Shown here piece by piece: positions 30,327 to 35,650 of a DNA stretch of 64,000 bases (the first letter of the stretch is position 1; every line of letters begins with the position of its first letter). A program made the position numbers and the translations under genes. A model generated the notes under the pieces. It searched no databases, was not told the DNA's origin, and saw only the letters and a program-made list of their open reading frames with translations. Source of the stretch: Candidatus Thorarchaeota archaeon (GTDB lineage Archaea > Asgardarchaeota > Thorarchaeia > Thorarchaeales > Thorarchaeaceae); contig SDNP01000003.1 of the NCBI GenBank assembly GCA_004524445.1, positions 1 through 64,000 on the forward strand, given 5' to 3'.

Positions 30327-31886
30327 TTGACAAAAGGTTCACCATCGAATTATTGTAGCCTTTGTGGCGATAATCGTTCAACGCATATGTGCGAGGACTG
30401 TGGTACTTTGCTATGCACAAATTGCCTTGATACGAAGTCAAGTGAGTACACAATGTGCGCAGAATGCCACCATAACCTTGGAAGGATTCCAACGGGCGAA
30501 GAACCGAAAACATGTTCTGAGTGTGACTCAGAGAGCTTTGTAACGGCAAAACGCATTGAGGAAATATGTCCAAAATGCTACTCGACTCGAATTGTGGGAA
30601 TTGAAGAAAAACGAAGAGCGCTAGCTCACGAACTGCGAAGTGCAGTAATGAACATTCATTACGGTCACACTAAACTTAGAGAGTTCAATGCTAGGCTCGC
30701 TTCCGCGAAGAGAATTCTTGTTTCATTGAGAATGGCGAATTTTCTTGGCTTCAAGTGGTTTGAAGATAGGATTGAACAGATTCAAGACGAGTTCATAGCT
30801 ATCAAGAACCGTGTTACAAATCAAGCAGAGATAGTAGCAAAGAAGATGCTCGCAGAAACAAAAGGTCTCATAGATTACCAAGCATGGGAGACTGGTCAAT
30901 TTCCGTTTGTTGAAGGTGTAACCAACCGTGTAAGCCATATCGGACGACAATACAAGAGCAATATTGATGACGCACTCCATGGATTGGAATTGGATTTAGG
31001 TGAACTGACTGAGCATCTAGAAGGTCTTGATTACTATAGAAAGCATTTCGCAGGATTTTACGAGTATTCAGATCTATCAGTGAACGAACTTCCTGTGTGT
31101 GCGATTCCCGAAATCAAACTAAGCGGGAGCGACTTCCTAAAACACGACAAGGCTACAGGAATACTGTATATCACAAATAAGCGATTAATATTCATTGCAG
31201 AAACTGGCATGGTACGCAAAAAGACAGAGGTCGTATTTGACTTCCCGTTAGTCTACCTAAAATCTCTGGAAGAAGATGGGAGGTTCAGGAAGCGTCTGGT
31301 ATTGAAGCTAAAACAGGGCGATGTACGAGTTGATTGTGACGAACAAACAGAACAGGTTCTCTCAGACTACATACAGATTGCAAAGAAGTTTGATCGGTAC
31401 GTGCAAGATGATATGCACCGAGTACGAAAGATTGAGGCGACCAGTGTTAATGTCAGCGATGTGAGACTGAAAATCGAGGAACTAGTTTACTCGATTTTAT
31501 CCACTAATCAGCCAAGCAAAATCCCCGAAACAAAGAGAGGGTACTATGTTCCATACCAGGACCAGGAAAGGCAAAGATGGAACCCACAAAGTAGATACCA
31601 GACAAAGCAGAATTATGAAGACGAATTGGCTGAGGAGCTCAGGAGGACACTCGGCCATCGAAATGGCAGACGAAGAAGTCAGGGATACGACCTTGGTCTT
31701 GAACAATTGAGGAGAAATGAGCGAGAACTCCAATCCGCTCTCTCTGAAACTGTCGACCTACTTCGAAGTGGAAGAATAGTACCTGAAGACTTCATAAGAA
31801 GATACAGAGGCCTCATGCGGGACTCATATAGTATCAGAAAAGAACTAGAGCACTACAATGGTAATACTGAATACCACAAATGGTGA
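30327..31886 (+). CDS. ESCRT-I-like protein: multi-Zn-finger, coiled coil, GRAM/GLUE(PH)-like domain and C-terminal steadiness box (Vps23/37-like)
   Basis: Six CxxC pairs; GILYITNKRLIF...FPLVYLKSLEE; ALSETVDLLRSGRIVPEDFIRRYRGLMRDSYSIR; adjacent to ESCRT genes. Confidence 0.7.
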   Translation: MTKGSPSNYCSLCGDNRSTHMCEDCGTLLCTNCLDTKSSEYTMCAECHHNLGRIPTGEEPKTCSECDSESFVTAKRIEEICPKCYSTRIVGIEEKRRALAHELRSAVMNIHYGHTKLREFNARLASAKRILVSLRMANFLGFKWFEDRIEQIQDEFIAIKNRVTNQAEIVAKKMLAETKGLIDYQAWETGQFPFVEGVTNRVSHIGRQYKSNIDDALHGLELDLGELTEHLEGLDYYRKHFAGFYEYSDLSVNELPVCAIPEIKLSGSDFLKHDKATGILYITNKRLIFIAETGMVRKKTEVVFDFPLVYLKSLEEDGRFRKRLVLKLKQGDVRVDCDEQTEQVLSDYIQIAKKFDRYVQDDMHRVRKIEATSVNVSDVRLKIEELVYSILSTNQPSKIPETKRGYYVPYQDQERQRWNPQSRYQTKQNYEDELAEELRRTLGHRNGRRRSQGYDLGLEQLRRNERELQSALSETVDLLRSGRIVPEDFIRRYRGLMRDSYSIRKELEHYNGNTEYHKW

Positions 31887-31887
31887 C

Positions 31888-32511
31888 TTATACGCCGAGC
31901 TCTTTCTCCAATGATTTAATCGCTTCTTCTAATTCCTCTGCCTCAGTCATCGGGCGCCCCGATTTGGCAGAGGCTTCAACTTGGGCTGCGGCCTCGATTT
32001 CTCTCATGGCCTCATTTAATTCTTCTGAGGTCACCTCAGCTTCGGTTGTGGAATCGAAAGCTTCGCCCGCAATGCCGCTCTCAATTTCAAACTCCTCCAG
32101 ACGCATGGCGATCTCGTCTGCATTTTCGATTACTTTGGATGTATCCGTGGCATCTCCGAGAAGACCCAATATATCTGCTACGTCATCAAGAGCTTTAGAT
32201 GCCTTTGCAGTGGTTTGTGCTCGAGTTACATGAGCTAATATCTTCAAGATTTGAAGACGCGACTTGTCAATTGAAAGAGCGAAACGTCTGAACCTCACCA
32301 TTTCTTGTGCATAGGTTCGAAATGCTTCCGTGTTTCCGTTCTTTCGTGCCTCGATTGCTCGCGCCTTCGTATCTCGTTCTTCCTTTTCCAACTTGTTTCT
32401 CTGTCGTTCAAGCTGCTTTGATAGAACGCGAAGCTGACTCGTAACTTCGTTGATATCAGGCTTCTTTCGTCCCCATGAGAAGGCTTTCTTGAAGATACCC
32501 AATCTGTTCAT
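31888..32511 (-). CDS. ESCRT-III subunit (Snf7 family, Vps2/24/46-like)
   Basis: Basic N-terminal helical hairpin QLRVLSKQLERQRNKLEKEE...ARKNGNTEAFRTYAQEMVRFR; acidic C-terminus with MIM1-like EELEEAIKSLEK. Confidence 0.9.
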   Translation of the reverse strand: MNRLGIFKKAFSWGRKKPDINEVTSQLRVLSKQLERQRNKLEKEERDTKARAIEARKNGNTEAFRTYAQEMVRFRRFALSIDKSRLQILKILAHVTRAQTTAKASKALDDVADILGLLGDATDTSKVIENADEIAMRLEEFEIESGIAGEAFDSTTEAEVTSEELNEAMREIEAAAQVEASAKSGRPMTEAEELEEAIKSLEKELGV

Positions 32512-32702: not shown

Positions 32703-33926
32703 ATGACCGACACGAATGGAACTAGGCTCGATAAAGGCTTAAGAGAATTGCTCGACAGAGCTATCGATCTAGATCAGAGGGGGCTGAAGAAGGAAGCATG
32801 CCAAAAATACCTGAAGGCCAGCAAAATTTTGATTAAACTCTCAAATGCAACAAGTCTCCCCTCCGTCCGTAAGCATTACCTCAAACGAGCGCAGGAGTGT
32901 GTAGATAGAGTTCGTTATCTATCCGGCATTAGGAAGAAGACTCGAGGACCAGAATTCGGCCTCACAAGGCCAGTCACACCAATCCATGATGATAGCCAAA
33001 AAGGTGAAATGCCAGTTACCAGTCCAACTGAAGAGCAAGACGAAGATGAGATACGACTCAATGAGATGGTTTCTGATACAATTCTTTCCGAGCGCCCTGA
33101 TGTCAAGATGTCAGAAGTTGCAGGACTAAGCGATGCAAAGCAAGCAATCCATGATGCCATTATATCACCCATGAAACACCCGGAGTTCTTCAAAGGTAAG
33201 GCTAGGCAGCCTTGGAAGGGAATTCTGCTCTATGGACCTGCTGGATGTGGGAAGACACTAATCGCCAAAGCGGTTGCAAACGAAGTAAAAGCCACCTTTT
33301 TCAATGTATCAGCAGCGAATATAGTGAGTAAATGGCTAGGCGAGTCTGAGCGATTGGTTAAACACCTCTTCGATTCTGCGCGTAACAACCAACCATCAGT
33401 CATATTCATAGATGAGCTTGATTCTATAGGGGTTTCAAGACGGGGAGAAGATGTTGGAGGGGAACGAAGACTCAAGACACAATTGCTAACGGAGCTTCAA
33501 GGCCTAACAAGCAAGAGTGGCGAAAGAGTCACACTCATTGGGGCAACAAATCTTCCGTGGGACATCGATTTCGCCTTACGGTCCAGGTTTGAAAAGAGAA
33601 TTAATGTTCCACTCCCCGATAAAGCCGCAAGGGTCAGAATTTTCAAAATACATATTGATGACATTGAAGTCGCGCCGGATGTAGACTTCAATGAGCTTGC
33701 TGACTTGACAGAGGGATACAGCGGGAGGGATATCAGCGTGGTATGCAGAGAAGCCGCAATGGAACCTATCAGAGAATTGCAGAGCGATATTTCTCCATCG
33801 GAAAAAGCTTCGTTCAGATTGAGGCCTGTATCAAGATTGGATTTCCTTAATGCGATTGATAATATTCGCCCCGCAACATCCCCTGAAGACATTCGCAGAT
33901 ACAAAGAGTGGGCGGAGGGTTCATAG
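32703..33926 (+). CDS. vps4: Vps4 AAA+ ATPase with N-terminal MIT domain
   Basis: MIT (AIDLDQRG..EAC..Y), PWKGILLYGPAGCGKT, SKWLGESE, FIDELD, ATNLPW. Confidence 0.95.
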   Translation: MTDTNGTRLDKGLRELLDRAIDLDQRGLKKEACQKYLKASKILIKLSNATSLPSVRKHYLKRAQECVDRVRYLSGIRKKTRGPEFGLTRPVTPIHDDSQKGEMPVTSPTEEQDEDEIRLNEMVSDTILSERPDVKMSEVAGLSDAKQAIHDAIISPMKHPEFFKGKARQPWKGILLYGPAGCGKTLIAKAVANEVKATFFNVSAANIVSKWLGESERLVKHLFDSARNNQPSVIFIDELDSIGVSRRGEDVGGERRLKTQLLTELQGLTSKSGERVTLIGATNLPWDIDFALRSRFEKRINVPLPDKAARVRIFKIHIDDIEVAPDVDFNELADLTEGYSGRDISVVCREAAMEPIRELQSDISPSEKASFRLRPVSRLDFLNAIDNIRPATSPEDIRRYKEWAEGS

Positions 33927-33929
33927 TTC

Positions 33930-34646
33930 GTGGGAGTTAGAGAGCGCAAGAAGGAGAAAAAGGAAAGCAAAGAAGAAGCTCGTTCAGAAGAAAAATCAGC
34001 TGAATCAAAAACCGATGAAATAACAGAGCAAGAAGTCCAACCGCTTGAAGGACCCAGTACTACACAGAAAGAAGACAAAACGACGACTGAACCTGAATCA
34101 CGCACTCAGGTCGTTGAAGAAACACCTGCCGAACGAGAGATGCTGTTGCCAACATGGGGCAGTGTAAATGAGTATGAATTGATGTACCATATACCTACTG
34201 GAGAAGACGACCGAGATCTCTGGGCAGATGAATGGGGAGATTTCCTCTTGGAGTGGGCACAAAAGAACACGGCACATAAAATATCACTAGTAACTTTCAT
34301 CACTGAACAACCATTCTCCGATATATTTGGAAAAGTGAAGGCATTCCGTCTGATAGCAGAAAAACTGGTTGACAAAGATGTGGCTGAATGGGTTGGAAGG
34401 AACAAGGGGCAGCTTCGGATTTACTGGAGACCCATAGAAGATTGGGCAGATATCATCTATGCATGGTCTATTGAAACAGGTAAGACTAGGTTGGATGTGA
34501 AGACACTAGTAATCCAAGAAAGCAGCCAGGATTTTGCAAGTCTGCCTGAAGATGAACTCAAAACCATCCTGGGCATTCTGGTGGAACAAGAACTCGCTGA
34601 ATGGGTAGACAAGAAACGAGCGGCAATAAGAATTCGTATTTCTTAG
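33930..34646 (+). CDS. vps25: ESCRT-II Vps25-like protein with acidic N-terminal extension
   Basis: AEWVGRNKGQLRIYWRPIEDWADIIYAW matches the Vps25 EW...I.WR.PEEW..IY.W signature. Confidence 0.88.
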   Translation: MGVRERKKEKKESKEEARSEEKSAESKTDEITEQEVQPLEGPSTTQKEDKTTTEPESRTQVVEETPAEREMLLPTWGSVNEYELMYHIPTGEDDRDLWADEWGDFLLEWAQKNTAHKISLVTFITEQPFSDIFGKVKAFRLIAEKLVDKDVAEWVGRNKGQLRIYWRPIEDWADIIYAWSIETGKTRLDVKTLVIQESSQDFASLPEDELKTILGILVEQELAEWVDKKRAAIRIRIS

Positions 34647-34660
34647 GCATAAAGACGGGA

Positions 34661-35464
34661 TTATAAACCATGAGCCGGGCGAGATTCTCGATTGTTTCTA
34701 CGTCTATCTAATATTTCATGATGGTCCTCTTTGTCCGATGCCTTGTGATGTAACCCGGGGAAGTAGTATCTACCGCCGGTACTAAAGCGAATATCAGCGA
34801 CCGCCATTCCGGCATCAACCAAACTCGATAATACTTGACGGGCGTGATCTTCAGACCACTTGAGTTCCATCATTACCTCTTCAACGGAGGTATAGCCCTT
34901 CGTGGCTGCAAGATTGACCACATCAGATTGATCGCCACGTAATTCCAATGGACGAAGCTCGACAACTTTGACGCCTCCCCGAAGTGTTCGTATTCCCGGA
35001 ATCAATCCGTTTTCTGCAACCCTATTGACAGCCTCTATCACATCATTATAGCTAACCGACTTAAACTGCGGCACACGATTAACAACCTCAACAATCAGGT
35101 CTGCAAGACCCATCAATCCTTTTGCCGAGTGTGTCGTGGCAACGTCGAGAACCGCCAATCCAAGATGGTCATAATATTCATCCATTGTGTATCCATCTAA
35201 GACGGGTCTGGCCCTGTTTTGGTAAAATTCGATTAATCCAGCTGCGTCTGGAAATTCATCTAAGATTCTTTGCTGTGCCATGAAGCCACCAACATCAATA
35301 CCCATGCGCCTCATCTCATCCAAATGCCCTTTCACTTCGCTGACTAACGCATCGGACTCCCGCTGGAATGACCTGATATCAACCGCGCCAAGGTCGTACA
35401 TCTTCTTGAGTTGATCTAAGGTAGCTATTGAAGCGTAAAGCTCCTGATGAATATGGTCATGCAT
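34661..35464 (-). CDS. ESCRT-II Vps22/36 (EAP30) tandem winged-helix protein with N-terminal Vps28-N-like domain
   Basis: DEYYDHLGLAVLDV...GLMGL...VSYNDVIEAV...DQSDVVNLA..KGYTSV....LKWSEDHARQVL...YYFPGL; N-terminus QELYASIATLDQLKKMYDLGAVD. Confidence 0.88.
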   Translation of the reverse strand: MHDHIHQELYASIATLDQLKKMYDLGAVDIRSFQRESDALVSEVKGHLDEMRRMGIDVGGFMAQQRILDEFPDAAGLIEFYQNRARPVLDGYTMDEYYDHLGLAVLDVATTHSAKGLMGLADLIVEVVNRVPQFKSVSYNDVIEAVNRVAENGLIPGIRTLRGGVKVVELRPLELRGDQSDVVNLAATKGYTSVEEVMMELKWSEDHARQVLSSLVDAGMAVADIRFSTGGRYYFPGLHHKASDKEDHHEILDRRRNNRESRPAHGL

Positions 35465-35650
35465 CGCCAGATATCCCTTCAGACTGATTTCTTGTCTAGT
35501 CTAGACTGCTAAACGAATTTCGTTGCGTGCTCTCTTAAAAGAGAGTATTATTGGGTTCAGGTCCATATTAGCAACATATTCGATTTGAAATATGCCTCTG
35601 AGACCAATTTCCAAAACCAGAAGCTGAATCGTATTGTATTGGCACGTACA

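Follow-up and report, generated by a model that had tools for sequence, protein, structure and literature searches.

Central to the sorting pathway in eukaryotes is the handover from ESCRT-I to ESCRT-II. There, the N-terminal domain of Vps28 (Vps28-N) sits in the ESCRT-I headpiece with Vps23 and Vps37, its C-terminal domain (CTD), a four-helix bundle, binds the GLUE region of Vps36 non-covalently, and the N-terminal helical region of Vps22 packs against Vps36. To our knowledge, among prokaryotes only Asgard archaea have both ESCRT-I and ESCRT-II.

Natural fusions of ESCRT components have been described in this group. Heimdallarchaeota carry a UEV-Vps23-Vps28 protein (Hatano et al. 2022), and Asgard proteins of the Vps22 family are reported in the main text of Makarova et al. 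(2024, mBio, PMC10936438) to be fused to a steadiness box (SB). These authors designate the SB-fused form “Vps22#” (asCOG cog.002769), and their Table S3 assigns residues 1-70 of a Thorarchaeota (Thor) Vps22, KXH75178.1, to PF03997, “VPS28 protein (N-terminal domain - SB)”, with an HHpred probability of 99.

We analysed a 64,000-nucleotide stretch of DNA from a Thorarchaeota, an Asgard archaeon (hereafter the window), which holds a five-gene ESCRT cluster including a vps22 gene of this kind (Table 1). Its product has the make-up that defines “Vps22#”, in which a single polypeptide of about 250 aa carries an SB/Vps28-N hairpin at the N-terminus and two winged helices after it; architecture and lineage are the same, and nothing essential differs. 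Orthology to KXH75178.1 is inferred from the conserved Thorarchaeota N-terminal sequence together with the sequence of ThorAB25_09030|Vps22 of Hatano et al. Like the Heimdallarchaeota protein, it hard-wires neighbouring ESCRT subunits, but where that fusion unites subunits within ESCRT-I, the Thor fusion crosses from one complex to the other, combining a domain of ESCRT-I with a subunit of ESCRT-II. The original prediction for this gene, made from the letters of the window, had left open whether the architecture had been reported before; it had, in both the main text and Table S3 of Makarova et al., and the present result is therefore a correct rediscovery. The Vps28N-Vps22 architecture, known since 2024, is confirmed independently here, and our analysis adds its restriction to one order among the genomes searched, its most likely origin in a fusion by deletion, and a model of a partner with the interface. 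Neither the confinement to one order nor the origin by deletion was found in the published accounts compared.

The two parts of the fusion protein

The fusion gene runs on the minus strand from an ATG at 35464 to a stop codon at 34661-34663, and its start position is shared with over 120 orthologs from Thorarchaeota, which are 245-275 aa long. The C-terminal tail is missing or unlike in orthologs. The 186-nt spacer 5' of the gene (35465-35650) contains A/T-rich stretches and a GAAGGG about 10 nt ahead of the ATG. The preceding gene is aminoacyl-tRNA-synthetase-like, and about 110 nt beyond its stop codon the spacer also has a perfect palindrome, CTCTCTTTTAAGAGAG. Judged from its sequence context, the fusion gene probably has its own promoter.

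Table 1. Features of the Vps28N-Vps22 fusion gene and of the ESCRT cluster around it, in window coordinates.
Feature	Position	Strand	Basis or remark
Vps28N-Vps22 fusion protein (P0001), whole gene	34661..35464	-	267 aa; ORF list and translation
Residues 1-86, Vps28 N-terminal (steadiness-box) domain	35207..35464	-	phmmer, hhalign, Foldseek/VIA; pLDDT 83-95
Residues 87-93, poorly conserved linker, presumed fusion junction	35186..35206	-	pLDDT drops to 59; mean column conservation 0.51
Residues 94-238, Vps22/EAP30 tandem winged helix	34751..35185	-	Pfam EAP30, human SNF8, Foldseek; mean column conservation 0.86
Residues 239-267 and stop, variable disordered C-terminal tail	34661..34750	-	pLDDT <50 at 240-260; conservation 0.21
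519-aa Zn-ribbon/coiled-coil/PH/steadiness-box protein (Znr_CC_PH_SB type)	30327..31886	+	Proposed docking partner
Residues 452-519 of the 519-aa protein, Vps23-like steadiness-box hairpin	31680..31883	+	Conserved C-terminal block, 30 orthologs
ESCRT-III (Snf7 family)	31888..32511	-	Pfam Snf7, 33.3 bits
Vps4 (MIT + AAA + Vps4_C)	32703..33926	+	Pfam
Vps25 (ESCRT-II)	33930..34646	+	Pfam ESCRT-II, 49.9 bits

The C-terminal two thirds of the protein are an ordinary Vps22 core. Pfam EAP30 (PF04157) matches residues 92-224 with 52.2 bits (cut-off 26.8), residues 95-240 align with residues 94-241 of human SNF8/Vps22 (E 1e-15), and a full-length AF2 model (47 orthologs as input, pLDDT 78) places two tandem winged helices at 94-235, with a disordered tail after them. 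The best Foldseek matches of this model are human and yeast Vps22 (2zme_A, 3cuq_A and 1u5t_A, E 1e-8 to 1e-6), the core being the same as that of eukaryotic Vps22/SNF8/EAP30 by both sequence and fold. The EAP30 alignment spans only positions 83-218 of the 219 in the profile: the canonical N-terminal helices of Vps22 (profile positions 1-82) are undetectable, and a Vps28-N domain stands in their place.

Residues 1 to about 86 are a genuine Vps28 N-terminal domain and not the usual Vps22 N-terminal helices, with a resemblance to Vps28-N that lies far above chance. When residues 1-94 were searched with phmmer against 1.84 billion (1.84e9) representative proteins, 12 matches were returned, including two Pfam-verified Vps28 proteins, P0129 (E 2.3e-5) and P0133 (E 4.5e-4, both whole-library E-values), which Pfam calls VPS28 with 44 and 58 bits, respectively, and which align through their N-terminal domain; the remainder are mostly Thor orthologs and fragments, and one 920-aa match in five stretches, P0130, is a DnaJ/ankyrin protein that we judged a false positive. 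By hhalign, a profile of the Thor N-terminus matches free-standing Asgard Vps28-N with a probability of 99.5% (E 3e-22, 84 columns, 29% identity), and with 98.8% (E 1e-16) in a second run, against 0.2% for the N-termini of 53 non-Thor Asgard Vps22 proteins, which themselves also reach 0.2% when compared with Vps28-N. An HMM of the Thor N-terminus matches every Asgard Vps28 ORF in the loci examined (38-67 bits) and no N-terminus of a Vps22 from outside the Thor group (E > 0.1).

A weak point is that this protein stays under the VPS28 threshold of Pfam: a scan at E <= 1 gave no VPS28, Vps23_core or Mod_r, and the Vps28 link therefore needed profile and fold methods. In a six-frame search of 151 Asgard genomes with Pfam VPS28, three genomes of the window's family gave weak matches (profile positions 2-61/71), every one of them on the N-terminus of a Vps22 ortholog, and an ORF in the sister family exceeds the Pfam thresholds for both VPS28 (26.6 bits, cut-off 24.5) and EAP30. 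Searching PDB sequences with a Thor-only N-terminal profile (hmmsearch) recovered no eukaryotic Vps28, the top match being a designed repeat protein and spurious; the link from the Thor N-terminus to eukaryotic Vps28 runs via Asgard Vps28 and via the fold.

The AF2 model of residues 1-94 alone (pLDDT 82.5) forms a hairpin of helices 2-24 and 30-53 or 54, followed by short helices at 58-84, the same arrangement as in Vps28 (PF03997). Its best 12 Foldseek matches are all Vps28-N chains of the ESCRT-I core or headpiece (TM 0.65-0.71, rmsd 2.0-2.7 Å), and VIA, which is independent of Foldseek, ranks human VPS28 first (6vme_E, Z 11.1, rmsd 2.0 Å over 80 residues) and yeast Vps28 second (2caz_E, Z 8.7, 80 residues), with generic hairpins next at Z <= 7.4. 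The Vps28-N chains among the structural matches (6vme_E, 2caz_B/E, 2f6m_B/D, 2f66_B and 2p22_B) had their identities confirmed with a 12-sequence Asgard Vps28 profile, which was used because a single-sequence phmmer of Asgard Vps28 P0133 against the PDB fell short, yielding just HigB-like noise and a weak Vps28-CTD match. The original prediction had read a Vps28-N pattern by eye at about residues 5-80, a departure from the usual Vps22 N-terminal helix, and an EAP30/Vps22 tandem winged-helix region at about 95-245. All three readings are borne out, and in the fold comparisons the N-terminal part by itself returned Vps28-N, and the full-length model Vps22, as best matches.

Two other identities for residues 1-86 can be weighed against these results. 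A diverged but ordinary Vps22/EAP30 N-terminal helical domain, superficially similar to Vps28, would fit the length of the segment, which equals that of human SNF8 (query residue 95 aligns with SNF8 residue 94), and the collinearity of the full Foldseek model with Vps22 over about 240 columns; we nevertheless consider it very improbable, as no EAP30 alignment exists before profile position 83, the hhalign probability for non-Thor Asgard Vps22 N-termini is 0.2% against 99.5% for Vps28-N, and no Vps22 chain appears among the structural matches of the N-terminal model. Scarcely credible, in our view, is a generic steadiness-box or CdvA-like helical hairpin without specific relation to Vps28. The SB of Vps23 (2p22_A) and CdvA (9s9g_A) do also match, each at Z 6.8, a CdvA match with a probability of 85 is listed for the same region of the Thor Vps22 (PMC10936438), and relatives show weak Vps23_core matches, but the Vps23 SB and CdvA matches span just some 55 residues, whereas those to Vps28-N span 80 and take in the additional short helices, with a lead of 3.7 Z over the next match that is unrelated; moreover, the motif ELYxxIATLDxLxKxYDxGxxD is common specifically to the Thor N-terminus and Asgard Vps28.

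Distribution across Asgard genomes and origin of the fusion

A survey across Asgard genomes, as the original prediction had proposed, located the Vps28-N module in 56 of the 61 genomes searched of the window's order (the Thor order), as a single copy in 55, and in 23 of the 24 order genomes that are at least 90% complete and no more than 5% contaminated. Full-length matches sit in ORFs of 246-323 aa and coincide with EAP30 matches, one match in the order being cut by a contig end and another interrupted by a TGA, and both parts occupy one ORF in all seven Thor-order loci examined, the sister-family locus among them. In 14 other Asgard families, by contrast, the EAP30 match covers the whole profile (positions 1/2-218) and Vps28-N belongs to an ORF of its own, vps28, which precedes vps22 on the same strand; many non-Thor loci have the two genes abutting, with just a few bases between them. 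Whereas Makarova et al. state the SB fusion for the Vps22 family generally, the Vps28-N module was detected here only in the Thor order. In a tree of Vps28-N domains, built from a short alignment with midpoint rooting only, the fused modules group together in a single clade (support 98/95).

The genome from which the window comes (90% complete) yielded no canonical Vps28, second Vps28-N or Vps28-CTD: six-frame searches with PF03997 and PF09454 gave nothing at E <= 10, and an HMM of 44 Asgard Vps28 CTDs found no match in the fusion ORF, in the window or among the Thor loci, its best domain E being 0.5. Compared with Vps28, the Thor fusion lacks the C-terminal four-helix bundle and is joined covalently to ESCRT-II, the EAP30 domain coming after residue 93. 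The best match of the CTD HMM, not significant at domain E 0.5, fell on residues 160-235 of a BAR/Vps28-like protein, a region for which an HHpred probability of 84 has been published (PMC10936438). Thorarchaeota are known to carry this protein, described as “Vps5-BAR fused to Vps28” (Eme 2023) and as the “BAR-SB” type (Makarova 2024, PMC10936438), and our genome encodes a 418-aa ortholog (57% identity) outside the window (G000:C1:76011-77240; locus L076 1474-2730, minus). Thor orthologs of it in related genomes give weak full-length PF03997 matches of 17-19 bits, while for the 418-aa protein itself Pfam gave no VPS28 and the Asgard Vps28-CTD HMM was not significant. The BAR/Vps28-like protein could supply Vps28-like functions, which counts against the explanation that we favour.

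Since vps28 elsewhere is a separate gene upstream of, and often abutting, vps22, the arrangement suggests a fusion that deleted the Vps28 CTD and the canonical N-terminal helices of Vps22. A single deletion in the ancestor of the Thor order would have brought together the first third of vps28 and the last two thirds of vps22, fusing vps28 codons 1 to about 90 to vps22 from the first winged helix onward and removing some 120 aa of Vps28-CTD and some 100 aa of Vps22 N-helices. Gene order and the short-domain, midpoint-rooted tree point to such a one-time fusion by deletion in the Thor ancestor as the most likely origin.

The EAP30 searches also brought up other proteins. A second match in the window's own genome (G000:C33:57995-58330, locus L073) is the C-terminal winged helix of an MCM helicase and not a Vps22 paralog; at 25.5-26.4 bits it lies near the Pfam cut-off and could pass for a second Vps22-like gene in automated surveys. 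In family f3 (genomes of about 1.4 Mb; locus L061, G001:C1), Vps22 matches EAP30 only from profile position 104 despite a separate vps28 just upstream, and its first 135 or so residues therefore represent a third kind of N-terminus. Two Thor-order matches (G112:C21:21267-21812 and G063:C7:27377-27928) fall on an EAP30-like region (profile positions 33/36-215) within ORFs of 810-878 aa, possibly the Zn-ribbon, SB and two-winged-helix architecture (cog.002441) of Makarova et al. (2024); the EAP30 search matched no equivalent of these in the window's own genome.

Predicted docking on a neighbouring steadiness-box protein

The Vps25 gene adjoins the fusion gene and is convergent with it, the two stop codons lying 14 nt apart, and the order of the five genes is kept in Thorarchaeota (consecutive locus tags, ThorAB25_08990 to 09030 in Hatano et al.). 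The 519-aa protein at the other end of the cluster belongs to the family named Znr_CC_PH_SB (cog.011556; Makarova 2024, PMC10936438), as does ThorAB25_08990|SB of Hatano et al. (2022). Six CxxC pairs are invariant among its orthologs, which also give weak matches to PH/GRAM, Vps23_core, Mod_r and Vps36-GLUE, the Vps23_core match to the steadiness box being found in 4 of 30 orthologs with a best E of 0.002. The public call for this protein (P0134, 477 aa, 100% identical) begins at an internal Met, omitting window positions 30327-30452, and would cut off a zinc-binding CxxC pair; with orthologs of 516-525 aa and an invariant first CxxC (C10, C13) before that Met, the TTG start at 30327 looks right. 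Vps25, whose GTG start lies 3 nt past the Vps4 stop, has an N-terminal extension of about 70 aa (33930-34139) rich in Lys, Glu, Ser and Thr, and the ThorAB25 Vps25 has a similar one (Hatano 2022).

We modelled residues 1-92 of the fusion protein in complex with residues 452-519 of the 519-aa protein and obtained an ipSAE of 0.65, against 0.01 for the best of three controls; 58 of 80 solved complexes reach the mark applied to this score, as do 2 of 110 mismatched pairs. At least 94% of the contacts are shared between runs, and the pLDDT of the partner is at least 76. In the modelled interface, the nearly invariant helix 1 (ELYASIATLDQLKKMYD) faces partner residues 476-505, a predicted contact with a Vps23-like hairpin that likens the protein to Vps28, and each partner is more conserved at interface positions than elsewhere (0.79 vs 0.62 and 0.78 vs 0.62). 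The model lends support to the predicted packing of the hairpin against the neighbour's Vps23-like steadiness box, although its pass may reflect structural likeness and not binding of this particular pair, because Vps23-C:Vps28-N structures have been solved. Yeast two-hybrid (Y2H) data point to a possible interaction of Vps28 with the steadiness-box proteins of both Thor and Loki, and to a contact between the Loki protein and Vps22 (Hatano 2022).

A mechanism can be proposed from these elements. The winged helices would act as in ESCRT-II, recruiting Vps25 and, through Vps25, ESCRT-III and Vps4, all of which are encoded nearby, while the Vps28-N hairpin would dock on a Vps23-type steadiness-box hairpin in the manner of the ESCRT-I headpiece, the C-terminus of the neighbouring 519-aa Zn-ribbon/PH/coiled-coil protein being the best candidate site. 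A single covalent polypeptide would thereby link an upstream adaptor to ESCRT-II, and a contact between Vps28-CTD and the GLUE region of Vps36 would play no part; Asgard archaea have no known Vps36 paralog (Hatano 2022). [quoted passage not shown] Taken together, the Thor form of Vps22, its origin in a single deletion, and the mechanism of steadiness-box docking and ESCRT-II action make up an account that we think quite likely to be right.

A different role for the hairpin would be mainly in self-association of Vps22, in place of the lost N-helices, with no docking on the neighbour's steadiness box. Thor Vps22 interacts with itself in Y2H assays (Hatano 2022), which makes self-association a live, non-exclusive alternative; a cross-linked dimer surface of Heimdall Vps22 maps to residues 41-47 in the N-terminal region, Odinarchaeal ESCRT-I is reported as two Vps23 to one Vps28 (Hatano 2022), and the canonical N-helices are missing in Thor Vps22. 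Against this, the heterodimer model beats its controls by a wide margin and uses the nearly invariant helix 1; free-standing Asgard Vps28, which pairs with Vps23, conserves this helix to the same degree. As the hairpin's main function we therefore regard self-association as unlikely; the two activities are in any case compatible, and a three-hairpin headpiece could hold two copies of one partner.

Ubiquitin is absent from Thorarchaeota (Hatano 2022), and Thorarchaeia have been described as lacking UEV-Vps23 (2023 preprint). Returning to docking, we tentatively propose a more specific version, whose chance of being correct we place somewhat short of even: a two-protein, probably ubiquitin-independent ESCRT entry module, in which a Zn-ribbon/PH/coiled-coil-SB adaptor docks on the Vps28-N domain of Vps22, established by a one-time vps28/vps22 deletion.

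Significance for ESCRT evolution

The architecture being already in the literature, the value of this analysis lies in its independent confirmation, in the confinement of the fusion to the Thor order among the genomes searched, and in a testable partner and interface. [quoted passage not shown] If the two-protein module and its deletion origin are true, the Vps28-CTD and the helical domain of Vps22 would be dispensable once ESCRT-I and ESCRT-II are covalently linked, and the Thor order would represent a natural experiment in the loss of two elements that are both essential in eukaryotic models.
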